Source: an uncultured Rivularia sp.
Lineage (GTDB): Bacteria > Cyanobacteriota > Cyanobacteriia > Cyanobacteriales > Nostocaceae
Assembly (NCBI GenBank): GCA_963665115.1
Contig: OY762007.1
Coordinates: 2,016,001 to 2,080,000 of the forward strand
DNA length: 64,000 nt
Direction: 5' to 3'
A program made the translations under genes and the position numbers. The notes beneath the pieces were generated by a model that was given only the letters and a program-made list of their open reading frames with translations, did not search any database and was not told the origin of the DNA. This document shows, in pieces, positions 1,261-20,723 of the stretch. The first letter of the stretch is position 1, and each line of letters opens with the position of its first letter.

Positions 1261-1311
1261 CTTTTGAGGATATGACGATTATTTAGGATGTATCTGCCAT
1301 TTTGAGCTACT

Positions 1312-1332
1312 CCGCCCTTTATAAAAGGGCGG
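1312..1332 (+). terminator. Hairpin downstream of aspS
   Basis: CCGCCCTTT-ATA-AAAGGGCGG perfect 9-bp stem ~50 nt after stop; U-tract weak. Confidence 0.5.
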
Positions 1333-1785
1333 GTTCAGGCATTTGTTATGCATCCAGATTAACCAAATATATATAAATGATATCTAAGCAACTTGATATT
1401 AGCTTGATAACTGTATTCATTTATAAACAAGATTAATTATTATACACCATATAAAAAATAATTAATGTATTCTAAACATCCTATTTAAATATTGTAATTT
1501 GCAGCCTTTGTCTAATCAGAACTGCTTTTATAATCGTTTATATTCACGAGGATGTTTGTTTTTTGATCAACTGTATACATTTATTCAAAAGTAATTTCTA
1601 TAATATATGTAGCATAAATAAAAGTAATGCATGAGAATATTGTCAGAAAAGCATCCAATACTTAAATCAAAAAACTGACAATTATTGCTTTTATTACTTT
1701 ATCAAGACATAAATCTATCAAAAGTTAGATTTCAAATATTTCTATAGTGCATTGCTTCCTTGAAAGCAAGATTATAAAAATCTAT

Positions 1786-1820
1786 TTGAAACAAATTATC
1801 AAGATACTGTATAATTACTG
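1786..1820 (+). promoter_or_regulatory. Putative sigma70-type promoter, copy 1
   Basis: TTGAAA-N18-TATAAT; the -10 lies in 19-mer AGATACTGTATAATTACTG, repeated at 2618-2636. Confidence 0.5.
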
Positions 1821-2332
1821 ACAAGAATGTAAATAGTTTTCTCAACAGTTAAAAAAAATATGTGTCGCAAGCTTCTTCCAAGACTTGCTATCTGTTGAGA
1901 AGAGTATTTATACGTTTAATGTCAAGATATTATAAAGTTAATATCAAGATATTGTGAAGTACTAAGTAAAGGTATTGTTACCTGGTCGCAAGCATTGTTA
2001 ACATTTCGATATGTAAAAAAAAATACAAAGGGAGGAGCAATTATTTAAGGTCTGCTAAAGTACAGTTGAACATAGTTAATGTTTTGTTAACTCTGATGAG
2101 AGAAATATCGGTTCTCCTCATTATGCTTAAACAGCTTTAATGGTATTCAGACCTAACTATAGTTTTCACTTTGCTTTAAATTAAAATTATGCATTTGAGA
2201 TGATTTACAAAGTTCCAAACTTTGTATGTTTGCATCTTTATTGAAAATTTGATGCGTAATCATTTAGTCAATGTATTTTTGTATTCTTAATTGCATTTTA
2301 AGACAATCAATTTACGTTTTCATTCTTGAGTT

Positions 2333-2418
2333 GGGCTTTGACGGTCTAGTGGATCTCAGTCCCTCTGAAACTGTCTTGTATTAATGCTGTAAGTTGATTA
2401 TTACAGCAGTAATGAGGG
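2333..2418 (+). ncRNA. Structured RNA motif copy 1 (30-nt hairpin plus downstream stem)
   Basis: GGGCTTTGACGGTCTAGTGGATCTCAGTCC is 26/30 identical to 2967-2996; followed by TGCTGTAA/TTACAGCA stem enclosed by CCCTC/GAGGG. Confidence 0.55.
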
Positions 2419-2601
2419 TATGATTTTAAATAGATATCCGTAGTGATGAAATCCAAGCGTAGTATATTTACGATCTCAAATGAAAACGGCAATAAAGAAT
2501 ATTATTAATTGGCATTGCTAAAAGAGATTGAGGCTTATTTGATTTGAAAATATTGCAAAATTGATAATTTATATTTCATGCATTTATCACGAATAAATTG
2601 C

Positions 2602-2636
2602 TTGCAAAGAAATATACAGATACTGTATGATTACTG
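2602..2636 (+). promoter_or_regulatory. Putative sigma70-type promoter, copy 2
   Basis: TTGCAA-N18-TATGAT; 18/19 match to 1802-1820. Confidence 0.5.
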
Positions 2637-2966
2637 TAAATAATTTTTTTTGGGATTATAAAGAAGCACCAAAAAACTAAATTGGTACATACAAAAATTA
2701 GGAAGGGAAGCTTATGTCTTATGACTGAGATTAGGTATAGATTACCATTTTTTGAATACTAATTCAATTGCATTTATCTGTACTATTAATGAAATTGAGA
2801 TGCTTGATTAATTTTAAGATAGGAGCAGTAAAATCTTGAACGGAAGAACAGTTTTAGTTTGGTAAATCCCTCGAGAAGAAGGCACTTAGCAAATAAATAT
2901 CTTAAGCTGCGTTCGGGATAGTCAAATATGACAATCGAAACATTGCATTAATTTTGAGCGGGAATG

Positions 2967-3207
2967 GGGCTTCGATGGTCTAATGGATCTCAGCCCTTTC
3001 GCGAGCCTTTGCTGTATTTTTGCGAGCAGAAAAGGTTGAATAATATCTTCTGTATGGAGTATAAATTATAAAATTGCGTGCATCTGCTTTCCGTCTGAGT
3101 AAAAAGTTAAGTTAGGCGTATTCCTTAACTTAAGTGTAAGAAGCCTGCCTAGTTGGAATTTATTCAAATGCAGCTTCTTTAAAGACGTATAGTTATCGGA
3201 TGAAAGT
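2967..3207 (+). ncRNA. Structured RNA motif copy 2 plus multi-stem leader reaching the start codon
   Basis: GGGCTTCGATGGTCTAATGGATCTCAGCCC hairpin; further stems 3004-3037, 3104-3131, 3138-3179 and enclosing 3086-3098/3196-3207. Confidence 0.55.
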
Positions 3208-3660
3208 ATGTGTATGAAAGATTTTAAATTGCTTAAAAGATGCGATCGCAATCGAAAGCGTTCTAAGAGAAGGGCTATATACTGCCCCGTTCATGGGTGC
3301 TATTTACACAGCGTCAGCCAAAAATATAGATTATTTTCTTCCTGCCCCAGACAACTTCAACAAAAAGGAATAGGACGACAGAATGCCAAAATATTGATAG
3401 CAAGTCAAACCGCAGTAGTTTTAGAAGATGAATGGTTAGAAGCATTTTGGTGCGATGAATGTCAGCAAACAAAATGGTATAGAGTTGAAAAGCTTGGTAA
3501 AAATTCGGACAAAAATGCTGGTCAAACTTCATATTCGATCTCTTTAGCACCAACTCAATTATGGGAACAAGCTATAGGAGTAGATGAAGCCAGAGGTAAT
3601 CCCAGTGTTAGCGAATTTACTCGCAGACATGCACGAATGGCGAGCTATGAAAATCTCTGA
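3208..3660 (+). CDS. Hypothetical protein with Arg-rich N-terminus and putative Zn ligands
   Basis: 150 aa; KRCDRNRKRSKRR, CPVHGC, WCDEC, C-terminal GNPSVSEFTRR; first ORF of the EPS cluster; exact start uncertain. Confidence 0.8.
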   Translation: MCMKDFKLLKRCDRNRKRSKRRAIYCPVHGCYLHSVSQKYRLFSSCPRQLQQKGIGRQNAKILIASQTAVVLEDEWLEAFWCDECQQTKWYRVEKLGKNSDKNAGQTSYSISLAPTQLWEQAIGVDEARGNPSVSEFTRRHARMASYENL

Positions 3661-3860
3661 AAATCGTGCATTAGAATTCACCTAAGAAGTTTGAAGGAAC
3701 AGTTCAAGATTCAAATAAGACAAATATTTTTCATCAGGGTTTAACTTAGTAACTAATTTGATATATGCTAGCTTCATTCAACTTCTTGAATTCTAGGAAC
3801 AGCAGATTAATATAATCTGAAATATTGTTAAATAGGGCATAAGGCATAAGAGGTGTTACT

Positions 3861-5374
3861 TTGAACAGGAATCCGTTTGTAAAGTTAAAAAACGGGAAAA
3901 TAGTTAGCGTTGAACATCCAACAACAGCTTCTTTTAACGAAACCCCAGCTAACACGAAAAAAAGGCAAGTAGTGCCCAAAGTGTCAGGAATATTTTATAT
4001 ACTTACCTTGATATTAGTGAATGCGGGTATTTGGAGTGGAGCTTTAATGTATTTAGCTACAGCCAAACCAAAATATATCAGTGAATGGGCAGTTAACATT
4101 CCTGGTAGTGGTTCAACCTCTAATATCAACCTTCCCGATATTGGACAAGCAACATCCCAAAACTATTCAGCTTATGCCGGAGCAAATTACGATCCTAGAG
4201 AAAACTATAAGGCGATCGCCACCAGCGATCAAGTATTAAAAGCTGCCGCTAGAATCGTGAATATGCCACCAAAAAAGTTTGGCAAGCCGCGAGTTAAAAC
4301 AGTTGACAATACATCCTTAATGAGGTTTGAGCTTAAAGGTTCCAATCCTCAAATAGCAAGAAGAAAATCTATAGCTTTACAGAATACATTTGAAGCTAAA
4401 TTAGAGCAGTTAAGAAACGAAGAAATAGCTCAGCAAAGAGTACGCTTAGAAAATGGGATGGAAGCGTCGCGGCGAAATTTAAAAACTGCTCAAAGACGGC
4501 TTAGTAATTTTAAAGCTGCTTCGGGTTTAAATTCCGAAGAACAACTGAAAAGTATGGCAATTAATATCGAAGAGTTACGCAGACAGCGTAGCGAACTAGC
4601 AGCCCAACAGCAACAGTCCCCCAGGCTCAGGTTTCGGAATTATCCGATAATCTAAGTTTGTCTTCCAACCAAGCTTCCAATGCTTTTGTTTTGCAAGCCG
4701 ATCAACTTTTTCAGAATTATTTGAAAAGTTATAGCGAAGCCAATAGCGATTTAATCAAAGCCAGCGCCAAATTAACTAAGATCCATCCAACGGTTATTAA
4801 CCTCCAAACAGAGCAGCAAGCAGCCCAAATTGCTCTTTTGGACAGAGCGCAAGCCCTTTTGAACCGTCCGATAAGTATGTCGTTAGTTAATAGACTTAAC
4901 TTCAGTAATAATGAATCGTCTGGTTCTAAACGCGCTATTCTGTCAGAGCAATTGGTGACAACAAACGTCGCAAAGCAAGGAATAAAGGCTCAAGTGAATT
5001 CTTTAGACTCACTAATTCCTCAGCTAGAAGATAGGTTAAAAAAATTATCGCAGCAGCAGTCCATCATGGAGGACATAAGACGAGACGTACAGGTTGCCGA
5101 AGCAGTATTTTCATCAACTATTGCAAAATTAGACTTGGCAAAAACCAGCGTTTCTTCTTCTTATCCAGAAATTCAGATTCTTGCCACACCCAGTTTACCA
5201 GAAGAGGCATCCGGACCGAGAACAACCTTGGTTTTGCTAGGTGCAACATTAGGCTCTTTATTCTTTAGTAGTGGAATTATTGGATTATGGAGAGCTAAAC
5301 TGCAACAGCAAAAACAAGAAAAACACCTTCAAGAATATATAGAATACCCGGAATTTGTAGAAGATCATTACTAA
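3861..5374 (+). CDS. GumC/Wzc-like polysaccharide chain-length/export protein, no kinase domain; frameshift at ~4620
   Basis: N- and C-terminal TM helices around a long coiled coil, IQILATPSLP before the last TM; two ORFs join across the C5 run 4618-4622. Confidence 0.85.
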
Positions 5375-5377
5375 AGC

Positions 5378-6638
5378 ATGAAACCCCAAAACTTTGAAGA
5401 AAGTTTAATTTGGTACGTACTTATCGGCACCTATGGTATCTACGCATTAGGATTAGTGTTTCCCGTTTATTCGGCATTGGCATGGGTATTAAGTGGATAT
5501 TTAGTTTTTAAAATTTTGCTGCAAACTAAAAAAACTCCACCCGAAGAAAGAATTCGTATTCCGTGGATAACATGGCTGTGGGGAATTTGTTCGCTAATTA
5601 CTTTAGTGGCAACTTATGCCGGTATTACAGATTTTAATTTGGGAAGAACTGCTCTTTTAAGAGCCATTTTAGGTTGGTTGATGAGTACGGCAGTCATACC
5701 CTTGTTTCTCCTCTGCGGCTGCTTAAATATCAGACCAAAACTTATTTATCGAGCGGTATGTATATTATGCTTGCAAAGTTTAATCGCAATTCCGATTGCT
5801 TATGCAGCCTATGCCGCAAATCTACCAGGTATTCTTTATACATCTCCCATTGAAAGATTGATTCAAAATGGACCGATTTTTTATAACGTCGGATTTTACA
5901 CGTCAGATTATGGCATTGATAACGTTCGTTTGTTTTTGTTTACTCCCTGGTGTCCGGCTTTAGGGTCTTGTTAGCAATGTGTTCTTTTTTATGGTGCTGC
6001 AAGAGTCAAATAAAAAATGGAGATACATTGGCATAGTTGGCGCGATCGCGATGAATATTGTATCCCTTTCACGAGCCGCTGTTGTTTGTCTACCACTAGT
6101 ACTAATTATTATTTGGGGTTTGAAAAACTTTACTAATCCGAAGATGCAAATTGCTGCTGGAATTGCTAGTTTCATTGCCGGGATTTTTAGTACCTCACTG
6201 ACAAATGCTGCTACAGATTTTGTCGATACATTCTACAGTTCGAGAGCCGATTCTTCAAGAGTTCGGGCTGCTTTACAAAGAGTAGGAATAGAGGGTTGGA
6301 AAGAATCTCCTATCTGGGGTCATGGAACTCAAAAACCTGGGCCACCAGTGCTGGCAAATTTACCAATTGGTTCTCATCATACCTGGGTAGGACTCTTGTA
6401 TACGAAAGGATTAGTTGGCTTCATGGCTTTACTAATACCTGTGTTATGGAGTTTTATTGAATTAGTTCTCAAGGCTCGTCATAGTAAACTTGCCGAAACA
6501 TCTTTGAGCATTTTACTTGTACTTCTGATATTCTCTTTTGGAGAACAAATAGATGTTTTAGGGTATATTTGTTGGCCTGGTTTAATAACTATGGGAATTG
6601 CCTTCAAACAAAAATTTTCTCATCCTATTTCCGCTTAG
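5378..6638 (+). CDS. O-antigen ligase/Wzy-like polymerase; frameshift at ~5964
   Basis: Multi-TM; SLSRAA, PIWGHG, GSHHTWVGLLY; removing one G at 5963-5965 fuses the ORFs. Confidence 0.85.
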
Positions 6639-6894
6639 TATTGTTTCCTAAGAAGGTTTACAGCTTGCATCTATCTACTTTTAACGCTCTAAAATAACTC
6701 ACAGATAACCGTATTCTAAATACCGTAGACTCAACAAAAAATAGTATCCCTGTTTGACCGTTAAAAAATATATTTCCATCGGTCATTTTTGACTATTATG
6801 GTTCTTAAGTATTCTCTAATTAAAGTAATAAAATTAAATGCTATCCCGCTCGTTCTACTCAATATTAAATAAATACAGAAATATCTAAAAATAG

Positions 6895-8193
6895 ATGATA
6901 ATTGAAAAGATTAGGCAACAGTTGTCAAACCAATTCATTCGTAATATTGGTTGGCTTGGAGGTGCCGAATTAATAAATCGTGTATTCCGTTTAGGAGCAA
7001 CAGTAGTGCTAGCCCGCGCTCTGAGTCCCCAAGACTACGGATTAGCGGCAGTTGTTTTAACTATAAATGAATTTACAACAGTTTTTACCCTCAGAGCCGG
7101 AATTGGGGGCAAAATTGTTCAAGCTGATGAAGAAGATGTAGAAGTCTTTTGCAATACAGCCTACTGGTTAAATTGGATTTTATGCATTTCATTATTTTTA
7201 ATTCAATGCATTGCGGCTTTTCCTATTGCATGGTTTTATAACGAAGAAAAACTAATATTACCACTTTGCGTATACAGTTTAGTCTACTTAATGTTACCGT
7301 TTTTCGCCGTTCATAATGCATTGATAGATAGAGCCAATAGACTAAAAATCACGGCAATAAGTACGGCAATTCAGTCAATGTTGAATAACATTCTTATTCC
7401 AGCATTGGCGCTTTCGGGTATGGGTATGTGGGCTTTAGTATTACCTGGGCTTTTTACAACTCCAGTATGGATAGTAGTTACCCATCTTAATGAACCTTGG
7501 CGACCTAAAATGTCTTTTACTCTTAAAAGATGGAAAGAAATAGTTTATTTTGGGAAAGACATACTCGGTTATGAATTATTAGAAAAATTCCGGTCAAATA
7601 TTGACTATTTATTAGTGGGAAGAATTCTGGGAGTTGAAGCTTTAGGAATTTACTTTTTTGCATTTAATGCTGGTTTAGGTATCAGTCTAAATGTTATAAA
7701 TATCATGGTTTGGCCGCTTTACCCTCATCTTTGTGCTGCCAGAAATAACTTTGATGAATTTAAACACAAATATTTTCACAGTCTCAAAACCATCGGCTTG
7801 GTGATAATTCCTTTAGTTATTCTTCAGTCGAGTTTAGCTCCATTTTACGTACCGATTGTTTTTGGTGAAAAGTGGACAATGGCTGTGCCCATATTGGTAA
7901 TAATTTGCCTTTCTGCTTTACCCCGCCCTTTCGGTACAGCAGCGGCTTTATTACTACAATCTCTAGATAAAGCTTGGATTAATTTGCGCTGGAGCGTACT
8001 ATTTACTGCAATATTTCTTACTTCATTATTAATTGGTATGAATTGGGGAATTTATGGAGTAGCAGTATCCGTATTAGTTTCTCACGCAATCGCAATGCCA
8101 ATGTTTACCGTTTGGGCAACAAAATTTGTATTCGCCAAGGATTCGGTAGTGTTTAAGCGATCAAAGCGAAAGATCGAGTCTTCTAATCGTTAA
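6895..8193 (+). CDS. wzx: Wzx-type polysaccharide flippase
   Basis: VLARALSPQDYG, IDYLLVGRILGVEALGIY, many TM segments. Confidence 0.9.
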   Translation: MIIEKIRQQLSNQFIRNIGWLGGAELINRVFRLGATVVLARALSPQDYGLAAVVLTINEFTTVFTLRAGIGGKIVQADEEDVEVFCNTAYWLNWILCISLFLIQCIAAFPIAWFYNEEKLILPLCVYSLVYLMLPFFAVHNALIDRANRLKITAISTAIQSMLNNILIPALALSGMGMWALVLPGLFTTPVWIVVTHLNEPWRPKMSFTLKRWKEIVYFGKDILGYELLEKFRSNIDYLLVGRILGVEALGIYFFAFNAGLGISLNVINIMVWPLYPHLCAARNNFDEFKHKYFHSLKTIGLVIIPLVILQSSLAPFYVPIVFGEKWTMAVPILVIICLSALPRPFGTAAALLLQSLDKAWINLRWSVLFTAIFLTSLLIGMNWGIYGVAVSVLVSHAIAMPMFTVWATKFVFAKDSVVFKRSKRKIESSNR

Positions 8194-8309
8194 AATTGTC
8201 CCTATTCCTAACTCTTATCAAAAAAGGAGATAATAACTTGCACTTGCATTTATAATACGAGCGCACATTTTCTGTTGCCTATTCCCAATTTTCTTTCCCA
8301 ATAAAAATC

Positions 8310-9252
8310 ATGAGTTCAGCATTTACAGTAGTTATGCCAGCTTACAACGCTGCTGCATATCTATCACAAACAATCGAATCAGTCTTAAGTCAAACCTTTA
8401 CTAATTTTGAACTAATAATTATCGATGATGGTTCTACAGATGATACTACTGCGATCGCCGATAAGTACCAAAAAATAGATAATAGAGTAAAAGTTTTATG
8501 TCAATCCAACCAAGGAGTATCGGCAACTCGTAATAAAGGAATTAATCTTTCTAAATCCAAATACATTGCTTTTATTGATGCAGATGATAAATGGTTCCCC
8601 GAAAACTTAAAGTTCCATTTTGAGCATTTGGAAAAAAATCCTCATTTAGGTGTTAGCTATGCAAAAGTAGAATTTTTACATCCAGACGGAAACCATACTG
8701 GAAAAATTGCTAGGGGGACGTTTAACCAAACTACAACCTCAGCATTTGTTGTATGAAAATCCCACGATGACAGTATCAAATATCGTGGTTCGTCGGCAAG
8801 TATTTGAGGAAATCGGCTGCTTTGATTGCACCATGAGCTATTCAGAAGATATGGATTTTCTGTTTCGGGTTGCCTGTAGCCCTTGGGAAATTGAAGGAAT
8901 CGACAAAGTATTATTGGGGTATAGAACAACACACGGAGGACTATCGTCGCAGCTTTACAAAATGGAAGAGGGTTGGGAAACTTTGATGAATAAAGCTAGA
9001 GCAAAGGCACCCGAGCTAATCGATCAACATTATAGTAAAGCTAGAAGCAATCATCTGCGATACCTTGCCCGTAGAGCTTTCCGCTTGCGTCTTTCCCCTA
9101 AGATTGGAGTTAATTTTTTAAATCGGGCATTAAGCTCAGATTGGCGATTAGTAATAAGAGAACCAGGGACAACTCTGGTTACAATCGTAGCAGTTTATGG
9201 GGCTCAGATTCTAGAATATGTAAACTTACGTAAATTTTCTCCATCAGTGTAA
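8310..9252 (+). CDS. Glycosyltransferase family 2; frameshift at ~8715
   Basis: VVMPAYN, IIDDGSTD, FIDADD, SEDMD; extra G in run 8713-8717. Confidence 0.88.
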
Positions 9253-9354
9253 AGATTAGATGAAAGTTTTATTTAATTTACATATGTTTGCTAAATAGCA
9301 GATTTCATAAAGTATCATTTATTACTGGAGGCATCTTGTAGAAAATGAACTAAC

Positions 9355-10359
9355 ATGAAAATATGCTATTTGATTCAGACTTATAAGAATCCAGAACAAA
9401 TATACAGACTTGTCAAATTAATTAAGAATACAACTTCCAATTCATTTATAGTTGTTAGTCATAATTTTAATAGCTGTAATTTAAATATCAGCTTATTCAA
9501 AAAACTAAAGAATGTTGAAGTAATTCCTAATAATGGAGTGATGATGGGTAGCTTCGGCATTATCCAAGGTTTTTTTGATGCTATTGGTTGGCTATTAAAT
9601 CAAAAGATTCAATTTGACTGGCTAATTAATTTAACAGGTCAAGATTACCCCACCCAACCTCTTTGCAAAGTTGAAAATCTTTTAGCGAATACAAACTATG
9701 ATGGTTTTGTAGAGTATTATGACGTTTATTCCAAGCAAAGTCCCTGGAGTAAAAAAGTAGTAAATACCAGATATTTATACAGTTATAAACATTTTAAAGA
9801 ATACTTATCGCCTCGGCAAAAGTATATGTTAAGACCGATTAAATATATAGTTAACAATTGCCAGCCTTTTGTTCGACTAGATTATTCTTATGGATTGATA
9901 GTTGGATTTAAAAACTTCTATAAATTCTTCGACAAAGATTTTATTTGCTATGGGGGTTCTTATTTTAGTACAATTTCTCAAAAATGCGCGATTTATCTGT
10001 ATGAGTTTGTTCGAGAAAATACCCAAATTATGGACTATTACAAAAAAACTTTTATTCCGGAAGAGTCTTTATTACAAACCATTTTAGTGAATAGTAAACA
10101 ATTCAAATTGTACAACAATAATTTTCGCTATACTGATTTTGCTAGTAGCCGTCACGGACATCCACGCATACTAACTAGCAAAGATTTCCCGGCGTTAACA
10201 CAAGATAATATTTATTTTGCTCGTAAGTTTGATATGAATGTAGACAGCACAATCTTAGATAAACTCGATCGCAGAACACTTACAGATAAAGTGATTGATA
10301 TACCTCCGACTAAATTTAGAATTGAGGAGAATAATTTCATACAATCAATCAAACAATAA
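9355..10359 (+). CDS. GT14 (core-2/I-branching) glycosyltransferase
   Basis: CYLIQTYKNPEQ, LTGQDYP, GGSYF, PEES..QT, FARKFD. Confidence 0.88.
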   Translation: MKICYLIQTYKNPEQIYRLVKLIKNTTSNSFIVVSHNFNSCNLNISLFKKLKNVEVIPNNGVMMGSFGIIQGFFDAIGWLLNQKIQFDWLINLTGQDYPTQPLCKVENLLANTNYDGFVEYYDVYSKQSPWSKKVVNTRYLYSYKHFKEYLSPRQKYMLRPIKYIVNNCQPFVRLDYSYGLIVGFKNFYKFFDKDFICYGGSYFSTISQKCAIYLYEFVRENTQIMDYYKKTFIPEESLLQTILVNSKQFKLYNNNFRYTDFASSRHGHPRILTSKDFPALTQDNIYFARKFDMNVDSTILDKLDRRTLTDKVIDIPPTKFRIEENNFIQSIKQ

Positions 10360-10394
10360 TATTTGATTTGTCACCGTTAATTATAATTAAAATA

Positions 10395-10425
10395 GCCCCC
10401 TTTATTACGAAGTAATGGGGGTTTT
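10395..10425 (+). terminator. Putative intrinsic terminator inside the EPS cluster
   Basis: GCCCCC-TTT-ATTAC-GAA-GTAAT-GGGGGT followed by T-run, 35 nt after the GT14 stop. Confidence 0.55.
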
Positions 10426-10623
10426 GAAGTCTCTATTCAAAAATCCAGGAATACTTAATTCTTGGGAACATTCCAATTTTGCAAAAAGTCCTCAGATTAT
10501 AAGCGTGGGGTAAAATATTTGTTCAGAATTGGGATACTCGCTAATTATTTTTTAATTATTATCGATGATATTTCCGTTACAATTAGCTATAAAACATTTA
10601 CAACTAATAATGGAAGTAAAAAA

Positions 10624-11556
10624 ATGAAACCTTGTTATTTGATTATGAGCCATAAAGATCCAGAACAAATCTATCGGCTTGTCTACACTATCAAAAAGCT
10701 TAGCCCCAATTCTCATATTCTATTAAGTCATGATTCGACAAATTGTAGCTTAGATGTATCAACTTTTAAAAAATTATCTGGAGTTGATGTCCAATTTGCG
10801 ACAGCAGAAAGAGCAGATTTTTCTCTAATTAACAAGTATTTTTGGGCTATTAATTACTTATTCAGTAATAATATAGATTTTGATTGGTTGATAACTCTTT
10901 CTGCCCAAGATTATCCAACTCAGCCCCTTTCAGAACTTGAGTTTTTGCTATCTACCACGGAATACGATGGCTTTTTAGAATTTTTCAAAGTTTTTAGTCC
11001 AGAAAGTGCGTGGAGTATTAAGGATGGCTCTCAGAGATATTTGTATAAATATAAAAAGCTGCTTTCATCTATACCTAAACCAATCAGAACAATACTGAAG
11101 GTACTCAAAGTTTTTAATTATTCACAACCTTTTTTCAGACTTGATTTTTCATATGGTTTGAGGCTTGGTATTAAACAGAAGTCTATATTTAATGATAATT
11201 TCAATTGTTATGGAGGTTCATTCTTTTCTATTTTATCTATGAAATGCGTGAAATACTTGAATGATTTTTATCAAAATAATCGTCAGATAGTTGAATATTA
11301 TAAATATGTTTTAGTCTCTGATGAAAGTTTTCTCCAAACTGTTTTAGTTAATAGCAATCAATTTAATCTACACAATGAATGCAAACACTATTATGATTTT
11401 TCTGATACTAGCTACGGGCATCCAGCAATATTAACAGAAAAAGATCATCATGCCATGATCCAAAAAAAATATTATTTTGCTCGCAAATTTGATATTAAGC
11501 TAGATAGCAATATTTTAGATATTTTAGACCAAGAATTTTTACTAAAAGTTAACTAA
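10624..11556 (+). CDS. Second GT14 glycosyltransferase (tandem paralog)
   Basis: MKPCYLIMSHKDPEQ, LSAQDYP, DESFLQT, FARKFD; ATG 10624 aligns with the paralog start. Confidence 0.88.
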   Translation: MKPCYLIMSHKDPEQIYRLVYTIKKLSPNSHILLSHDSTNCSLDVSTFKKLSGVDVQFATAERADFSLINKYFWAINYLFSNNIDFDWLITLSAQDYPTQPLSELEFLLSTTEYDGFLEFFKVFSPESAWSIKDGSQRYLYKYKKLLSSIPKPIRTILKVLKVFNYSQPFFRLDFSYGLRLGIKQKSIFNDNFNCYGGSFFSILSMKCVKYLNDFYQNNRQIVEYYKYVLVSDESFLQTVLVNSNQFNLHNECKHYYDFSDTSYGHPAILTEKDHHAMIQKKYYFARKFDIKLDSNILDILDQEFLLKVN

Positions 11557-11715
11557 TATTTTTTAGTTCGCTTTGTAAATTTGTTAGATTTATTTTTTCT
11601 CTGTTCCCTATTTCCATATCCAGTCTTTGCTCTTTTTCAACTATTTAATTAGCATATTAGTAAGAAAATAAACTTTATTCCATAGTTAATAATTAATCAT
11701 TAGGTCAAGATTATA

Positions 11716-12690
11716 ATGCCAAAAGTATCAGTTATCGTACCAGCTTACAACGGTCAAAGTACAATTTTAGAAACAATTAATTCTGTTTTACAGCAAAGTT
11801 TTACAGACTTTGAATTAATTGTAATCAATGATGGTTCTACCGATGGCACTTTGGAACTGTTATCAAATATAAAAGATGCCAGATTAAAAGTTTATTCTTA
11901 TAAGAATGGAGGTTTACCAGCAGCCCGAAATCGCGGTATAGTTCGTGCCACGGGAGAATTTTTATCTTTTATAGACGCTGATGATTTATGGACACCTGAT
12001 AAATTAGAGTTGCAACTTCAGGCTTTACAACAAAATCCTCAAGCAGGAGTTGCTTACAGTTGGACGATTTGTATGGGAAATAATGGAAATTTATTTCACC
12101 CCGGTGTATCTGAAAGTTTTCAAGGTAATGTTTACCCCGATTTACTAGTAGGTAACTTTATTGGCAGTGGATCGAATGTTTTAGTTCGTAGAGAAGCAAT
12201 TGAATCGGTAGGCTATTTTGATGAGAGCTTGAAGTCATGCGAAGACTGGGATTACTGGTTGCGATTAGCACCGAAATGGGAGTTCGCAGTTGTTCCTAAA
12301 CCTCAAATTATTTATCGATTATCTTCGGGGGCTATGTCAAGCAAGCTCGATGTGATGGAAAAATATCAAACTTTGGTTTTAGAAAGAGCTTTTGCATCGG
12401 CACCTTTAGAACTTCAGCCTTTAAAGAATCGAGGTTTTGCTTATATTTATTTATTTATGACACGACTTTACTTGAGTCGGGCTAATGATGCAAAAGTTGT
12501 TAAACAAGCCACTCAAAAATTATGGAAAGCTATTCGTTTTTCCCCGAAAATATTATTAAGTAAAGAGGCTCAGCTTTTATCAATTAAACTAATCATATTA
12601 CGAATACTTTCTCCAAAAATTGCTTCTAGGTTTTTAAACAGAAGTGTTACTGTTCGTAACGTTGCCGATCCCAGGTTACAAACTAGCTAA
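11716..12690 (+). CDS. Glycosyltransferase family 2
   Basis: VSVIVPAYN, INDGSTD, FIDADD, CEDWDYWLR. Confidence 0.92.
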   Translation: MPKVSVIVPAYNGQSTILETINSVLQQSFTDFELIVINDGSTDGTLELLSNIKDARLKVYSYKNGGLPAARNRGIVRATGEFLSFIDADDLWTPDKLELQLQALQQNPQAGVAYSWTICMGNNGNLFHPGVSESFQGNVYPDLLVGNFIGSGSNVLVRREAIESVGYFDESLKSCEDWDYWLRLAPKWEFAVVPKPQIIYRLSSGAMSSKLDVMEKYQTLVLERAFASAPLELQPLKNRGFAYIYLFMTRLYLSRANDAKVVKQATQKLWKAIRFSPKILLSKEAQLLSIKLIILRILSPKIASRFLNRSVTVRNVADPRLQTS

Positions 12691-13007
12691 TTTATAAATT
12701 TAAAGTTATGAGTTAAGAGTTAAGAGCAAAATGTATTTAGAAGTAAATTGCTTTTTTCTCTGACTAGAGTCAAATACAGTCCTTTATAAACTTAAATGGC
12801 AAAATGCATGAAACATTTTAATAAGCGAACTGTACTCTATTGAATTTACCTCAATTCCTAACATGATTTATTGATATTGCTTCTTCTAGCAATCCCATTT
12901 TTTTTCTACTGTCTCTCTAAAAACTAAAGATATTTAATCGAACTAAATTCTGTTAGTATTTGAATTACTACCAGTTTTTTTTGTGCCATTACATCTATCA
13001 AACCACT

Positions 13008-14058
13008 ATGAATCATCAACAAATGAACAAAAAAGTATCGGTGATTATTCCGCTGTATAATGCAGAGAAATATATCGGCAGAACCCTACAATCTGTTTTA
13101 AATCAAACATATGAGAATCTAGAAATTATCATTGTCGATGATGAATCACCCGATCGCAGCGTTAAAATTTGCGAGCAGTTTAGTGACTCCAGAATTAAAA
13201 TTTTACATCAAAAAAATCGAGGCTTACCTGGTTCTAGAAATACGGGTATCCGTCATGCTAGCGGCGATTATATCGCATTTATAGATGCCGATGATATTTG
13301 GTTGCCAGAAAAGTTAGCAAAGCATATCGCTCATTTGGAAAGTCATCCAGATGTGGGAGTAAGTTTTAGTCGTTCTGCTTTTATCGATGAAACAGATAGA
13401 CCCTTTAGGTATTTATCAAATTACTAAGCTTCAAGATATTACTCCTCTCGATATTCTTTGTCGCAGTCCAATTGGAAATGGTTCTGCTGCGGTTTTCAGA
13501 AAAGCTGTTTTTGAAGATATCAAGTTTCAAAAGAATCTTTATGGTTATGTAGAAGATTATTATTTTGACGATACTTTTACGCTCTCTGAAGATATTGAAT
13601 GTTGGATCAGAATCGCGATTCAAACTAACTGGAAATTTGCAGGTATTGCTCAACCATTAACTCTTTACAGAATTAATTCTAATGGTCTCTCAGCTAATCT
13701 TCAGCAGATGATTAACTATAGAGAACAGGTTTTTGAAAAAGCTTCCTCTTATGCTCCAGAACAAATGGCGCGTTGGTTAAAACCTGCAAGAGCTTATCAT
13801 TTAAGGTACGTTGCAAGAAGGGCTATAACTATTAATAAAGGAATTTTTGCGTTGAAACTTATGTGCCGTTCGATTGTGAATTACTGGCCAATTATTATAG
13901 AAGATTTTCAGCGTACCTTTGAAACTATTGCTGCTGCTATTTTACTTTGCGTTGTACCGAAGCCTGTATACGAGAAAGTTAAATTGTTCGCTTTGAAGAT
14001 AATCGGAAATTTGCAACAGAAAAGTATTAATAAAGATAAATTGAGTGAAGCATCATAA
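13008..14058 (+). CDS. Glycosyltransferase family 2; frameshift at ~13402
   Basis: VSVIIPLYN, FIDADD, SEDIECWIR; extra C at 13401-13403. Confidence 0.87.
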
Positions 14059-14155
14059 AAAAAAGTGATCTTATAAAGTCTATAGATGTGAGATGGCTGC
14101 TAGTTTTTACCTGCAAAAATCGCCCGTTGCTTATCGAAATTACCAATCAACCAAT

Positions 14156-14488
14156 ATGCAAACTAAACTTCTAAGCCCTAGATGTACGGTGGTAGAACCT
14201 CAAAATTCAATTACAGCCGCAAACGCTTATTTGTTTGAAAGAAAACTAGCTACAGCATTAAGAAAAAACTCTCATTCCAAATTATTAGTCGATCTAAAAC
14301 AAGTGGAACATATAGATAGTGCTGGGTTGATGGCATTAATATCTAGCTGCAAATTAGCTCAAAGTTTACAAACACGCTTTAGCCTTTGCTCAGTTTCCCC
14401 TTCCTTAAAAATTGTCATTGAACTAACTCAGCTCGATCGCGTATTAGAGATATTTGAGTCTAAAGCCAAATATACAGAATCGCTGTAG
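14156..14488 (+). CDS. STAS-domain anti-sigma factor antagonist
   Basis: VDLKQVEHIDSAGL, ELTQLDRVLEIF; start could also be 14093. Confidence 0.88.
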   Translation: MQTKLLSPRCTVVEPQNSITAANAYLFERKLATALRKNSHSKLLVDLKQVEHIDSAGLMALISSCKLAQSLQTRFSLCSVSPSLKIVIELTQLDRVLEIFESKAKYTESL

Positions 14489-14512
14489 TACAGATATCTA
14501 GCTATTTAAAAA

Positions 14513-16673
14513 ATGCGTTTTTTCAATCTACTTAATCGTCGTCAGCAGCGAATATTTGGCATCGCCTTTATCGTACTAGCTACATTTTTTGTTTCGTTTT
14601 CCTTTAATTCCAATCAAGCTGTTCGCAATATATCCCAACAAATTACTGTAGCCAAAGCTCGTTCTCAACAGTATCCTTCTTTAGGTACTGCGAATGTTGC
14701 CATCGGTGGGGGAGGTTATGTAACTGGAATTTACCTTCATCCAAAAGAGCGTAATTTAGTTTATATAAAAACCGATATTGGTGGTTTTTATCGGTGGAAT
14801 CCCGCGAATTCAACTTGGATACCGCTTAACGAACAGTTTTCCTTGGCTAATAGCAACTACTACGGAGGAGAAGCTTTAGCGCTTGACCCTAAAGACCCTA
14901 ATATTGTATACATTGCTGTAGGGAAATATACTGCCGATTGGTGGCAGTCTCAAGGAACAATTCTCAAATCTTTAGATAGAGGCAGAACTTGGACTAAGCT
15001 AAATCTGGATTTGAAGATGGGTGGCAACGAATCACAAAGATGGACTGGTGAAAGATTAGCGGTTAATCCTTTCAACTCTAAAAATCTATTTTTTGGTTCT
15101 CGTCAAGATGGGTTGTGGAAGTCAGACAATGGTGGCCAAAGTTGGGCTAAAGTCAAATCATTTCCCATACTCAATGACGATATTGGCATCAACGCTATTA
15201 CTTTTGATAGATACAAAAAAGGCACTATCTATGGATTAGCTCATAAAAATGGAATATATAAATCGATTGATACGGGTAAAACGTGGAATAAAATTTCACA
15301 AAGTCTTGCCGAAGTCAACCGTATCGCCATAGGAAATGAGGATACTTTATATGTAACTCATGCCGGGGGTGTTAGTAAATTTGTTAACGGTAGTTGGAAA
15401 GATATTACCCCTCAACAAAACAAATTAGCTTTTAATGCTGTTAGCGTTAATCCTAAAAATAGGGAAGATGTTATGGTTGCTACCTATAGTGACTCATATA
15501 CACAGATATTCCATTCTTTTGATGGTGGAAGTAAATGGACTCAGCAGAAACGGCAAGCCAATAATACAGTTTCGTGGTGGTCTGACTATATGAAGTCAAA
15601 ACCTTCCGTAGCCAGTATCGAATTTGACCCTTGGAATGCAAGTAGGGTTTGGTTAACAGACTGGTATGGGATATGGCGAACTGATAATATCAATCGCAAT
15701 CCAGTTGTGTGGACAAATTATCAACGGGGACATGAAGAGATTGTCACCTTTACGTTGGTTGCAACACCCTCGGGAGCATTAATCAGCGGTTTAGCAGATG
15801 TTGAAGGATTTTACCATGACCGGGGACTAAATGCTTATCCGTCGAAAATGTTGAGTAGCAAACCTCATGATTTTCAAGACACTTACAGCATTGCTTACAG
15901 CCAAAAAAGTCCTTTAAAAATGGTGCGAGTGGGGGGGAATCGTCATAACAATACTTATAGCGGCGCAACTTCTAGCGATGGTGGAAAAACTTGGGAGAAG
16001 TTTTCCAGTTTTCCCAAGAATCAATTGGCGACGCGAGTAGCCATGTCTGCAACCGATCCCAATTTATTTGTTGTTACCCTCAGCGGTACTCAACCTCTGC
16101 GAACAACGGATGGCGGTGCTTCTTGGCTTCCGGTTTCTGGTTTACCCAATGGATTTGAGGGAAATTGGAATTGGACGCAACCTTTAGTAGCAGACAAAGT
16201 TGACGGCAATACGTTTTACTATTACGCCGATGGAAAAGTTTATCGCAGCAGTAACGGTGGTAAATCTTTTGAAGTCGTTTCTGAATCGTTACCCCATGCA
16301 GATTGGCACTCTTTAAAAACTGTTTCAGGAGTTAAAGGTGAATTATGGCTGAGTCTGGACGATCGAGGGACTTTACCGCTCAACCGATGGAGGAAATAAT
16401 TTTACCCGAATTAAAGGAGTAAATAGAGCATATTTGATTGCATTAGGCAAGCCTAAAACTGGAAATAAAGGTAATGCATTATATCTATATGGAGAAATTG
16501 CTAACCAAGGAAAAGGTATATTTCGTTCTTTAAATAATGGACAAATTTGGCAGCGAATAGGCGATAAAAACAAACCTATCGGTAACGATCCAAACGTAAT
16601 GGAAGCTAGTTCCACAGAGTTTGGTTTAGTTTTTATTGGCACCAACGGTAGAGGCATTTACTACGGTAAATAG
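14513..16673 (+). CDS. Exported GH74 (xyloglucanase-like) beta-propeller protein; frameshift at ~16368
   Basis: N-terminal hydrophobic segment, GGGGYVTGI..HP, TDIGG, Asp-box repeats S.D.G.TW, SGLADVEG, C-terminal GTNGRGIYYG. Confidence 0.8.
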
Positions 16674-16713
16674 TTGAATAATTTAGAACTCTAGATAATT
16701 TTAATAAAAAACA

Positions 16714-17523
16714 ATGACTACAAATAACGTCTGCATCCACCAATTTGATGAAGTCGAATTACTTGGCACTAAGTTTCATAAAGTCAGAGTCCAAGAATTA
16801 ATTAATTTTATTGTTAGCTCAGCAGGTATTGATAAAAAAACCCTAGTCGGGAATGTCAACGTTCGAGCAATGAATTTTGCTTGCGAAATGCCTTGGTACA
16901 AAGATTTTATTAACAGATCGGATTTAGTCTTTTGCGATGGATTTGGCGTATTATTAGGTGCCAAAATGTGCGGTTGTGGGATAAATTCGGAACATCGTAT
17001 GACTTGCCCCGACTACATAGAAAACTTGGCTTCCGCTTGCGAACGAGAGAATGTTTCGCTGTATTTGCTTGCAGGTAAGCCTGGTGTTGTCGATAAAGCA
17101 ATTGAGAAGTTGCAAGTTATTGCACCCAAATTAAATGTAAAAGGACATCATGGTTACTTTCATAAATCTGGCATAGAAAATGAATACGTTGTTAATGAAA
17201 TTAATCAGTTTAAGCCAGATGTATTATATGTTGGCTTCGGAATGCCATTGCAAGAACGTTGGATAATTGATAATTTTGACCGAATTGATGCAAAAGTGTT
17301 TCTACCTTTGGGTGCTTGCTTAGACTTTTATACGGGTGCAGTATATCGTGGTCCCCGCTGGATGACTAATCGCGGACTTGAATGGTTATCCCGAATATTT
17401 ACCGAACCAAAAAGATTGTGGCAACGTTACGTTATAGGTAATCCGCTGTTTTTCTACCGTCTTCTCAAAGAACGCTTCGTAAAACTTTTTAAGAAGGGCA
17501 GTAAAGCGTCTTCAACATATTAA
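16714..17523 (+). CDS. WecB/TagA/CpsF (GT26) glycosyltransferase
   Basis: DLVFCDGFG, HHGYF, VGFGMPLQERW, GLEWLSRIFTEPKRLWQRY. Confidence 0.93.
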   Translation: MTTNNVCIHQFDEVELLGTKFHKVRVQELINFIVSSAGIDKKTLVGNVNVRAMNFACEMPWYKDFINRSDLVFCDGFGVLLGAKMCGCGINSEHRMTCPDYIENLASACERENVSLYLLAGKPGVVDKAIEKLQVIAPKLNVKGHHGYFHKSGIENEYVVNEINQFKPDVLYVGFGMPLQERWIIDNFDRIDAKVFLPLGACLDFYTGAVYRGPRWMTNRGLEWLSRIFTEPKRLWQRYVIGNPLFFYRLLKERFVKLFKKGSKASSTY

Positions 17524-17824
17524 GATAGATTGCATTTTTTTATCAAATTAACTCGATCGCTTTTAGTTAATTTGATATTAAATCTATTAACCGAAGAAAA
17601 TGTTTTATTTTACTTTTGAAGCAAAATAAAAAATAGCAAAACATCGATACAATACGGGTATTTATCAAAGCTTAAAAAATATTAAAATTTGGAAATAACT
17701 TTTTGATATTTTTCAAATAGCTATATGCAAATCTTGTCAGTGAATGAAGCAAGATTTAATATCCCTGAATTTAGCAATTTATAACAATCATGCGAACAGT
17801 GTTTATAGAGGTGTAATACTAATT

Positions 17825-19252
17825 ATGGCTTATCGTTCTCTACCAGGAGTAAATTTTCGACCTGACTTAAGATCGGCTAAAGGTGCAAACTTAAGAAAAG
17901 GAATTACAATCAGATTCCTTCGAGTTGTAACTCTTGTTTCATCAGATGTAATTGCTCTAAGTTTAGCGTGGACTTTAGCAATAAATTTCGGCACGTTTTT
18001 AGAATCAGCTTGGACGAAAAAGCCTTCATTTATCCTACTAATCCTGATAGTTGGCATTGGTATGATTGCAACTAAGGGTTTATATTTGCCCGGTATTTAT
18101 CGTCGTAATTATGCTGCGTTAATAAAAGCCGTTACCCTTTCAGAAATTTTATTACTATTAATTGCTTTCCTGTACGAACCAGATGGTTACGTTTCCCGGT
18201 CTAGCTTTTTAATATTTTGGCTACTATCGGTAACTTTTACCTGCACGGGACGCTTGATATTTGATTTTTCAACTAAACTATTGCGTAAAAAAGGGGCAAT
18301 TCGCTATCCCATTTTTGTGATTACCGATCCAGACGACAGAGACGATTATATCAAGTTTATTCAGAAGGAAAATTGTTATACTCTCGAAGGTATTGCTGAC
18401 TCAGAAAGTCTGGATAGAGAGAATAGAGAAGCAACCTTTGATTTTCTAAAACAACAAGGTATAGTTGAGACTTTTGTTTCTTGGAATGCAATTAAGAATC
18501 GCCTATATATTTGCTGGCATTTCCAAACTGCTGGTATTACTTTACGAATTTTGCCAACAACCGATCGCATTTATCATCCCAAATCAACACTTTGGAAAAT
18601 TGGTAATATTCCTTGTTTAACAATTCCCGCACCAATTATTGCAGGTAGCGACTTTTGGATTAAACGGTGTTTCGACCTTTGTTGTTCGATTATTTTATTA
18701 ATGCTGTTTTCACCTTTATATCTGTTAATTTCTTTACTTATTAAATTAGATTCTCCCGGTCCAATATTTTTTAGACAAGAGCGAATTGGTTTACACTGTA
18801 AGAAATTTAAAATTTGGAAATTCCGCACGATGGTAACGAATGCGGAAAAATTACAGGCAAACTTGGAAGCTAAAAATGAAATAAAAGATGGGGTTCTGTT
18901 TAAAATGAAAGATGACCCCCGGATTACAAAAATTGGTAAGTTTCTACGTCTTTACAGCTTGGATGAATTACCTCAATTATTCAATGTGTTATTAGGTGAT
19001 ATGAGTTTAGTTGGTCCTCGCCCTCTTCCTGTAAGAGATGTTGAAAAATTTCTAACACCGCACTTTATTCGACAAGAAGTTTTACCAGGCATTACAGGTT
19101 TGTGGCAAGTTTCAGGTCGTTCTAACATCGAAAAATTTGAAGATGCAGTCAAATTAGATATTAGTTACATTGAGAACTGGTCTATCCTTTTGGATATGAG
19201 AATTTTACTGCAAACAGTACGAGTTGTTTTGCAAAAAACGGGTGCTTATTAA
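17825..19252 (+). CDS. Priming undecaprenyl-phosphate sugar transferase (WcaJ/CpsE-like)
   Basis: N-terminal TMs; KFRTM, DDPRIT, SLDELPQLFNVL.GDMSLVGPRP, PGITGLWQVSGR. Confidence 0.93.
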   Translation: MAYRSLPGVNFRPDLRSAKGANLRKGITIRFLRVVTLVSSDVIALSLAWTLAINFGTFLESAWTKKPSFILLILIVGIGMIATKGLYLPGIYRRNYAALIKAVTLSEILLLLIAFLYEPDGYVSRSSFLIFWLLSVTFTCTGRLIFDFSTKLLRKKGAIRYPIFVITDPDDRDDYIKFIQKENCYTLEGIADSESLDRENREATFDFLKQQGIVETFVSWNAIKNRLYICWHFQTAGITLRILPTTDRIYHPKSTLWKIGNIPCLTIPAPIIAGSDFWIKRCFDLCCSIILLMLFSPLYLLISLLIKLDSPGPIFFRQERIGLHCKKFKIWKFRTMVTNAEKLQANLEAKNEIKDGVLFKMKDDPRITKIGKFLRLYSLDELPQLFNVLLGDMSLVGPRPLPVRDVEKFLTPHFIRQEVLPGITGLWQVSGRSNIEKFEDAVKLDISYIENWSILLDMRILLQTVRVVLQKTGAY

Positions 19253-19690
19253 TAAGTCATATTTCCATCGGGGAGAGAGTTTTGATCTTAATTACTACTC
19301 CCCGTAACAAATGAAGGCGAAAAAACTTTTTAGTATAGCTTGCGACATTTAATTTTGTGCTATATGATTTAGATATAAAATATTAACTAATTCACAAATT
19401 TATCATTATATTTTTGTTGATATCAAACAAGGGCTTTTGTATTAATTATTATTTGACGGAATAAAAATAATGGTTTTAATGTTTATCTATGAATATTTAT
19501 AAATTATTTATATTTTTTCTTCATAATGGAAAATAATTGGATAGTATATAAAAAAATCAATAATAATGAATAATTTCTATATATATCTATTTACTTATCG
19601 ATAAAAATTAAATATTTAAATTTTGTTATATAAGTCTATTTTTTCAATAGACCTACATGATAATTGACTTGAGTTATAAGGGTCATCAGG

Positions 19691-20407
19691 ATGATAAAAA
19701 GTAATAGCTTCAGTAGAATATCTTTAAAAGAAAGATTGCTCACTACCATTTTCGGTGGTATTCCGAATCTTTTTTTAGGTAAAAAATTAAGGAATTTGGT
19801 ATATCGAAGCCTTTTGAATCGGATAGGTAAATCTGTTAATATTCAACATTTTGTAGAGCTTATTGGAACTCCTTGGATTGAAATTGGTAATCAGGTAAGT
19901 CTTTTGAAAGGAGTGCAAATTAATGCTTTAGGGCATCCAAATAATAAGGTACATATAAAAGATCGAGCTAGATTAGAACGCGGTGTAGATATTCGCTCGC
20001 TGCACGATACACATATAATAATTGACGAAAATGCATATATCGGTCCCTATGTCACTATTAGCGGTACGGGAGATATAAAAATTGGTAAAAACTGCTTAAT
20101 TGCACCACATTGTGGAATATTCGCGAACAATCATATTTTTACAGATCCGACTCGAACTATTGAAGAACAAGGTACAACTCGTCAGGGAATTGTAATTGAA
20201 GATGACTGTTGGTTAGGGCATAACGTTACGGTATTAGATGGAGTGATTATTGGAAAAGGAAGTATTATTGGTGCGGGTTCCGTTGTTAATAAGAGCATTC
20301 CTCCCTTTTCTATCGCAGTAGGTACACCAGCAAGAATTATTAGAAATCGTCTTGATAGAGAAACACCAAACTTCTCATCACAACTATCATCAAAAATTCC
20401 AACCTAG
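19691..20407 (+). CDS. Hexapeptide-repeat acyltransferase
   Basis: IVIEDDCWLGHNVTVLDGVIIGKGSIIGAGSVV, GTPARII. Confidence 0.9.
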   Translation: MIKSNSFSRISLKERLLTTIFGGIPNLFLGKKLRNLVYRSLLNRIGKSVNIQHFVELIGTPWIEIGNQVSLLKGVQINALGHPNNKVHIKDRARLERGVDIRSLHDTHIIIDENAYIGPYVTISGTGDIKIGKNCLIAPHCGIFANNHIFTDPTRTIEEQGTTRQGIVIEDDCWLGHNVTVLDGVIIGKGSIIGAGSVVNKSIPPFSIAVGTPARIIRNRLDRETPNFSSQLSSKIPT

Positions 20408-20723
20408 TTTTTGTTCGACATCGAATTTTATATTGATAATTTCGACTTAATACTCTATCGAACTAAAGCTGCCGAGTGAAAGCCAGCGCGGGACAATCTA
20501 AAAATTTCCAAAACTGAGAATCCCAATTTATGATTTTAAATTGCCCCGATCTGTTTTTCCCAAAAGGGACAAGCAAATCAATCGTAAATCTAAAATTGAA
20601 ATGACCAGCAACTATCTGAATTTCAGCAAAAGTAAAGCCATTTTTGGTAGATGCAATTCTGTGCGAAAAAAGTGGATGAATTTCTTGTTTAATTAATAAG
20701 TATTTAATTCATCCACTGCCGAC

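Follow-up and report, generated by a model that had tools for sequence, protein, structure and literature searches.

The arginine-rich motif of lambda N binds boxB, LoaP binds a hairpin, and HK022 Nun arrests or terminates transcription. Phage Mu Com is a small zinc protein that is paired with the structured mom leader RNA. To our knowledge, the transcription and regulation of the 15-30 kb polysaccharide clusters of cyanobacteria are poorly understood. As described in part of PMC9371919, helix H2 of AlpA inserts into the exit channel of RNA polymerase and touches the zipper, the lid and the zinc-binding domain (ZBD), and part of PMC9378689 describes Q21, Q-lambda and P7 as narrowing the RNA exit channel. 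EAR sits in an exopolysaccharide operon, according to portions of PMC2864571; where that 104-motif RNA survey deals with cyanobacteria and polysaccharide genes, the portions in question name EAR/epsC, JUMPstart, manA and wcaG, and the hairpin described below is not named there.

Here, we describe a locus in a 64,000-nt stretch of DNA from an uncultured Rivularia sp. (the window), in which a short gene lies behind a bulged hairpin and heads a long polysaccharide operon. We think it likely that the gene encodes a processive antiterminator outside the NusG family that is loaded by nascent RNA; its contact with RNA polymerase is predicted, and it would bind RNA directly. This reading rests on the coupling of gene and hairpin, on clade-specific protein/hairpin pairs, on the link between hairpins and operons, on the predicted polymerase contact, and on the lack of another factor for the job. 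We found no description of the protein family, or of its two RNA elements (the class-I and class-II hairpins), in the literature searched. The full-text search, which covered mostly non-subscription journals, returned no account of the system, and survey supplements could still list it.

The gene is present in the ORF list of the window as a 150-aa ORF (3208-3660, +), as the original prediction had it, but its start is probably the ATG at 3214, since relatives L002 and L003 lack the 2 nt at 3208-3209 and many homologues are 148 aa long. Its codons differ from those of L002, the nearest relative, by 10 synonymous and 4 non-synonymous changes, and this excess of synonymous changes, together with the homologues, marks the ORF as a real gene on sequence grounds. 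All of the motifs originally listed are found in the translation: a basic patch at residues 10-22 (KRCDRNRKRSKRR), C26-P-V-H29-G-C31 (CPVHGC), W81-C82-D-E-C85 (WCDEC) and G130-NPSVSEFTRR-140. The arginine-rich motif (residues 10-23; 3235..3276, +) likely binds the hairpin. Two zinc knuckles, C26-x2-H29 (3283..3294, +) and C82-x2-C85 (3451..3462, +), are suggested by alignment conservation and a ligand swap, and a conserved C-terminal segment runs from W119 into the GNPSVSEFTRR helix (residues 119-144; 3562..3639, +). The AlphaFold2 model (pLDDT 78.7, pTM 0.62) shows a core rich in beta structure that carries a helical insert; confidence is low for the basic N-terminus and for the conserved helix at the C-terminus (pLDDT 58-66 for residues 119-144 in the protein-alone model). 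A Zn-ribbon-like fold is predicted, and the protein would bind zinc.

Conservation is concentrated in these same motifs. In an alignment of 111 members, R18 is kept in 106/110, C26 in 109/110, C82 in 108/111 and C85 in 96/96 ungapped members, while position 29 is H in 89, C in 15 and D in 4. At least five R/K residues occur within the 18 residues before C26 in 105 of the 111 members, and W76/E78, W119 and the NPSV motif are also conserved. The idea of a split zinc site therefore stands for C26, H29, C82 and C85 but not for the second cysteine of CPVHGC: C31 (81/111) and C12 (74/97) are not shared by the whole family, which leaves C26/H29/C82/C85 as the likely site. In a divergent clade the pattern becomes CxxC...CxxH/D, and the ligand pairs over 106 matched members are H/C in 79, C/H in 8, C/D in 5 and D/C in 5. 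Judged from the alignment, this swap of the fourth ligand is as expected of a Cys3His-type site. Two other family members, at L181:2663-3091 and L182:13111-13539, have CSID instead of CPxH and are transcribed away from the hairpin.

The family is widespread and carries no familiar label. Those homologues that have names, alr5224 of Nostoc sp. PCC 7120 among them, are hypothetical proteins of cyanobacteria. Homologues made up 1,014 of 1,021 candidates, with no Pfam domain in any of the 120 listed, and 589 of 592 pattern matches in species-representative genomes were relatives. The gene was matched in 56 of 301 genomes of the phylum and, with fragments included, in 285 of 331 genomes of the family. 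A profile search over 1.84 billion representatives returned 120 proteins at E<=0.001. Consistent with the absence of a helix-turn-helix, NusG-like or enzyme motif noted at the outset, the window protein has no Pfam or NCBIfam match at E<=1 and no helix-turn-helix match; it has no match in PADLOC or among PDB sequences, and none of the 111 members matches a NusG family, and weak Zn-type domain matches are scattered among them. The C-terminal 35 aa matched designed helical repeats alone among PDB sequences. Foldseek gave no match to the predicted model at E<=0.001; the best VIA-align match had Z 4.9 (rmsd 2.1, 46 aligned), the NrdR Zn ribbon had Z 3.7 (rmsd 2.8, 44 aligned), and an Atlas search returned unnamed cyanobacterial clusters only. 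Thus, neither the sequence nor the fold searches assign the protein to an enzyme or an export component, and its Cys, His and Arg residues are conserved. With regard to mobile elements, the window protein has no PHROG match (3 of the 111 members match one unnamed PHROG at E=0.0036), phage tblastn found no match to the family, and a plasmid search found two weak matches.

The gene is preceded by a 1.9-kb leader, upstream of which lies what we take to be an aspartyl-tRNA synthetase-like gene, and this leader holds two copies of a bulged hairpin of 35-45 nt, the class-I element. Copy 1 (2325..2370, +; repeat D3), the likely loading site, matches the covariance model at E=6.8e-13 and consists of a stem, a 2-nt bulge, 2 bp, a 1-nt bulge and a 4-bp stem-loop; it folds at -12.3 kcal/mol as compared with -6.3 kcal/mol for the reverse strand. 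Copy 2 (2959..3004, +) matches at E=1.5e-10, and the corresponding values for 2955-3010 are -19.9 and -12.4 kcal/mol. An 18-mer is common to both, against a chance expectation of 0.07 in the window, and these are the only two class-I copies found in the 8.7-Mb genome. In the RNAalifold consensus, the 5' side of the stem carries two bulges, of 2 nt and 1 nt. Among 67 distinct copies, 95.1% of cells are paired, G-U pairs are conserved, and there are 21 two-sided changes versus 6.5±2.2 in shuffles; this covariation is modest taken by itself because a control slid by +1 also reaches 23 two-sided changes. Together, the pairing, the two-sided changes and the G-U pairs suggest an element that behaves as RNA. 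Rfam gave only sub-threshold chance matches in window 1200-4000, and none at the gathering score in seven loci spanning both hairpin classes.

Several candidates were set aside during these searches. The hairpin does not resemble an intrinsic terminator, as a U-tract follows 32/137 class-I and 1/32 class-II copies. Weak model matches inside coding genes (G111/L157, G147/L158, L122, L138:19196), pattern matches in rpoC2-like and accD-like genes (L141, L142) and class-II pattern matches in an rps1-like gene (L286, L287) were attributed to chance, and a class-I pattern match in G023 (L140) does not fold as the consensus. The leader itself also contains AT-rich direct repeats of families D1 and D2 (window 1783-1828, 1928-1955 and 2599-2644), which overlap promoter-like sites at 1786 and 2602, hundreds of bases 5' of the hairpin copies; possibly, the leader contains a duplicated promoter-plus-hairpin unit. 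A GC-rich stem-loop at 1286-1355, just after the tRNA synthetase-like gene, is probably the terminator of that gene or a repeat. Elsewhere, a divergent family member that precedes non-polysaccharide genes (L129; G267:C39) has a variant hairpin ~60 nt upstream, with the class-I core and an enlarged loop.

Gene and hairpin occur together with great regularity. The profile built from the loci places the hairpin upstream and on the same strand in 77/81 loci, and with hairpin models built from the same loci that were counted, the class-I hairpin is present in 115/119 class-I loci and never on the opposite strand. The nearest copy lies within 60 nt of the gene in 79 of these, farther upstream in 34 and only downstream in 2, and is missing from 4; several copies are present in 11/119. 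The covariance model matched 26/151 genomes of the phylum, all of which carry the gene, although one of the 26 (G111) is a chance match inside a coding gene. In a set of 80 chosen genomes, which are kin and mostly from two genera, the same model found the hairpin in 36/36 with an intact gene and in 0/44 without (28 of the 44 have a gene fragment and 16 no gene match), a pattern of co-loss that can arise if both were deleted together in a small number of lineages. Decayed hairpin copies remain beside gene remnants, for example in G095 and G217.

A second protein/RNA pair strengthens the case for a direct partnership. A quick tree (89 of the 111 rows) splits off the long-branched divergent clade with an SH-aLRT of 100, and the class-I hairpin is absent from the loci of this class-II clade. 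Instead, a different hairpin, in which an invariant bulged core tops an outer stem that is long and variable, occurs upstream or downstream of the gene and on the gene's strand in every copy listed. The outer stem has 58 two-sided changes versus 18.9±4.8 in shuffles, with slid controls at or below 33, and when arms are exchanged between loci the folding energy is halved, from -10.2 to -5.4 kcal/mol. The exact core, a pattern derived from some of the genomes counted, occurs in 26/34 class-II genomes, is not found in the other 8, and occurs in 2/46 other genomes, both times inside a coding gene. One genome, G074, holds both gene types, each adjoining its own type of hairpin. If the protein bound its hairpin directly and specifically, co-divergence of this kind would be expected. 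In family f5 (L219, L221, L226, L228, L231), another conserved stem-loop that covaries is located downstream of the class-II genes, ~900 nt from the gene start. For a third clade, in Cyanobium/Synechococcus (66/201 genomes of family f24), no hairpin was found, nor any shared flanking motif in 30 loci.

What lies behind these hairpins? In the window, the gene heads a same-strand run reaching 20407, and the ~16.5-kb Wzx/Wzy-type polysaccharide operon within it (3861..20407, +) is the likely target. Its gene types are Wzz/Wzc-like, Wzy-like, Wzx, GT2s, a branching enzyme, STAS, WecG, a sugar transferase and an acetyltransferase. Indels of 1-2 nt split operon genes at window 4621, 5963 and 8713 relative to close relatives, and ORFs are also split near 13400 and 16400; since the indel pattern differs between relatives, the splits are assembly errors or recent decay. 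Over the 5.5 kb downstream, 68/70 loci are co-directional; for ORF starts in the window's genome, the figure is 27%. Genes for polysaccharide export or synthesis mostly occupy the first position downstream, as judged from 61 proteins in 60/80 loci (the other 20, all Rivularia-like, were near-identical or truncated and were dropped): ABC2_membrane (26), Wzz (8), glycosyltransferase (2), nucleotide-sugar enzyme (2), ABC_membrane (2), DUF29 (2), EamA (1) and hydrolase (1), with 17 having no domain match at E<=1e-7.

The placement of the hairpin tracks the operon and not the ribosome site of the gene, as the distant, downstream, outward-facing, multiple and trans copies attest. For example, the hairpin lies 3' of the gene in L131, L159 and several class-II loci, and in L181 and L182 it is oriented towards a long glycosyltransferase operon and away from the gene. 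The gene of G167 stands alone, and the single pattern match is 1.35 Mb away, heading a long cluster of what are presumably Wzm/Wzt, nucleotide-sugar and glycosyltransferase-type genes; G105 has the same arrangement, with the distant hairpin at the head of a cluster. Three copies are spread along a single cluster in G086, and G074 carries two at a distance from the gene. In G071, the gene again stands alone and there are 12 dispersed intergenic copies, 10 in or before polysaccharide clusters, one before a defence operon and one without an adjoining same-strand gene. In loci L143, L145 and L147-L149 of this genome, the hairpin sits within a repeated unit that is longer and includes a second stem on its 3' side, and the clusters that bear the repeats are packed with what we take to be Uma2/DUF29-like and transposase-like genes; the repeated units are possible re-loading sites after insertions. 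The defence-type operon (12 kb), headed by the class-I hairpin at L148:12140-12170 (-), includes a DpdE/DrmD-like helicase, a DrmMI/type IIG methyltransferase and a DruE-like helicase, so targets may extend beyond polysaccharides.

Complex prediction points to RNA polymerase as the protein partner. Co-folding with RpoB 640-1088, RpoC1 1-345 and zinc, a check proposed with the original prediction, gave a score of 0.65 versus 0.00 for the best of three controls, with single runs at 0.00, 0.66 and 0.65 (agreement between runs of 0% or more, partner pLDDT of 58 or more). The score mark used is reached by 116/157 solved and 2/215 mismatched pairs, counts that are only roughly valid here, and the input consisted of polymerase fragments, clamp helices included, free of DNA, RNA and sigma. 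The closest predicted contacts are those of the VSEFTRR helix (residues 134-142) with RpoC1 66-68, 95-100 and 254 and with residues 315-318 of the RpoB fragment, with further contacts at RpoC1 44-52, 253-266 and the flap region. Going by domain boundaries, we take these regions to be the base of the zinc-binding domain, the zipper, the lid and the wall of the exit channel. Hence, the conserved C-terminal helix is predicted to sit at the exit channel for RNA, and the basic tail, outside the predicted interface, would be free for RNA. Conservation at the predicted interface does not significantly exceed that of the remaining core (0.47 versus 0.41, permutation p=0.09), and the score could stem from likeness to solved Q/AlpA-type complexes, although no similarity of sequence or fold to these was found. 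The conserved Cys, His and Arg residues, the gene-linked covarying hairpin and the predicted polymerase partner all agree with the original proposal of a small zinc protein that would bind nucleic acid. The genome of the window has one NusG-family gene, the sole PF02357 gene, which lies elsewhere than 3208-3660, and one NusA; no Rho was found above the cut-off. With a single NusG-family gene and no Rho, no factor of the RfaH/UpxY/LoaP type was found for this job.

These elements can be arranged into a mechanism. The arginine tail would grip the hairpin in nascent RNA while the C-terminal helix, as predicted, holds the protein at the RNA exit channel. Once loaded, the protein would act as a positive elongation factor, such that long operons are read to their end, and internal copies of the hairpin would re-load it along the way. 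Where the gene lies behind its own hairpin, the arrangement would amount to positive feedback of the kind that UpxY or LoaP exerts. In the part of PMC2779892 that reports it, overexpression of sigJ, a regulator of extracellular polysaccharide, raises alr5224 3.3-fold and alr5223 3.7-fold. For G477, where the family protein shares 99% identity with alr5224, five raw-read RNA-seq runs from two studies show the hairpin transcribed in sense (1.5-14x); at this low depth there is no step at the hairpin, and coverage is low over the ~13 kb beyond. Upstream of that hairpin, G477 has an abundant ~330-nt leader RNA (L163:8068-8398, +) that ends near 8395, after which depth drops several-fold before a glycosyltransferase gene, making this a possible attenuation site. 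In the window, a promoter scan was at chance level and a simple terminator scan of 1260-21000 showed no excess (8 sites versus 12.2±3.3 in shuffles).

The same hairpin could be bound by the protein to a post-transcriptional end, with the protein acting as a translational activator like phage Mu Com or as a stabiliser of mRNA. We regard this as unlikely, while recognising that the 79/119 loci with a hairpin at most 60 nt from the gene start, the largely paired Shine-Dalgarno (SD)-like word in 38/73 near-start leaders and the anti-SD-like word in the 3' arm of 24/26 near copies are what it would lead one to expect. It does not readily accommodate the 44/124 upstream copies separated from the gene by more than 150 nt (at most 2,281 nt), and tandem, intra-operon and trans copies fit it poorly; moreover, the outer stems of class II vary freely, and the predicted polymerase contact would not be needed. 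Stabilisation of mRNA is harder to exclude than translational control. A more improbable alternative retains both the hairpin and the polymerase site but reverses the outcome: like HK022 Nun, the protein would arrest or terminate transcription and impose negative feedback on polysaccharide synthesis. A helix predicted to lie in the exit channel could either guide RNA or obstruct it, and operon RNA is indeed low in G477, which carries the gene. Nevertheless, G477 coverage does not drop after the hairpin, decayed hairpin copies precede short units of 3-4 genes, and long operons of the kind targeted here are usual for positive factors, as stated in part of PMC7819879.

It is also conceivable, at very low probability, that the element is read as DNA, whether as an operator, a cruciform or an ops-like non-template hairpin, with the protein a DNA-binding regulator, or that the element is a mobile repeat. 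The 12 copies in G071 lie in a longer repeated unit, in clusters rich in inserted genes, and Q and AlpA load from DNA sites according to part of PMC9371919. Against this stand the conserved G-U pairs, the compensatory changes and the strict strand polarity of the element. Further, just two copies were found in the window's genome, both in this leader, and the protein gave no helix-turn-helix match. We retain the antiterminator as the preferred reading.

Should the antiterminator reading be correct, the protein would be a master switch for the production of slime, sheath and capsule, control of which bears on biofilms, soil crusts, desiccation tolerance and biotechnology. Its architecture would be new in joining RNA loading to a plug of the exit channel. 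The two orthogonal pairs could also serve as a compact tool to drive long synthetic operons.

How does the system compare with those already described? The NusG paralogues (RfaH/ops-JUMPstart, UpxY, LoaP and TaA) likewise act at the head of long polysaccharide operons or in trans, as recounted in portions of PMC7593976 and PMC7819879, but the window protein has neither an NGN domain (PF02357) nor a KOW, and its predicted contact is the exit channel and not the clamp helices. The Bacillus EAR/epsC RNA and the HK022 put RNA are also structured leader RNAs tied to antitermination (PMC2864571 and PMC9378689, each in part); unlike these, the hairpin has no Rfam match and co-varies with a dedicated protein, and none of the EAR/epsC, JUMPstart, wcaG and Cyano-1/2 covariance models matched above threshold in window 1200-4000 or the seven loci. 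Phage Mu Com resembles the system in combining a small zinc protein, here predicted, with a structured leader RNA. The alr5224 family differs in having no Com-family Pfam match, in its greater length and conserved C-terminal motif, and in a hairpin that is often far from any start codon.

The closest parallels lie with the phage factors. With the Q-type factors (21Q, lambdaQ, Pseudomonas AlpA and Xp10 P7), the protein shares, as a prediction, an exit-channel helix that touches zipper, lid and ZBD. It has no PDB sequence match to Q/AlpA, which are also absent among the VIA-align matches listed (best Z 4.9), and whereas a DNA element at a sigma-dependent pause is the loading site for Q and AlpA, the element here behaves as RNA by covariation. 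Sequence homology to N or Nun is lacking, in that the window protein has no PHROG match and the family no phage tblastn match. N is also intrinsically unstructured, needs the Nus factors NusA/B/E/G as well as boxA, and is phage-borne, whereas the window protein has a predicted, folded Zn-ribbon-like core and is chromosomal, with a long bulged stem as its RNA. The likeness to lambda N/boxB is one of design: an N-terminal arginine-rich motif together with a polymerase contact in the C-terminal part, which is predicted here and, for N, is part of the mechanism set out in portions of PMC7819879. Like N and Nun, whose protein/RNA pairs are phage-specific, the family would recognise a cognate hairpin through matched protein/RNA pairs. 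On balance, we lean toward a new form of antitermination in cyanobacteria, with at least two orthogonal pairs, action in cis and in trans, and re-loading along the operon, that, in most Nostocaceae and many unicellular lineages, gates operons for sheath, capsule and O-antigen-type polysaccharides, and that would combine the loading of N with the action of Q and AlpA.
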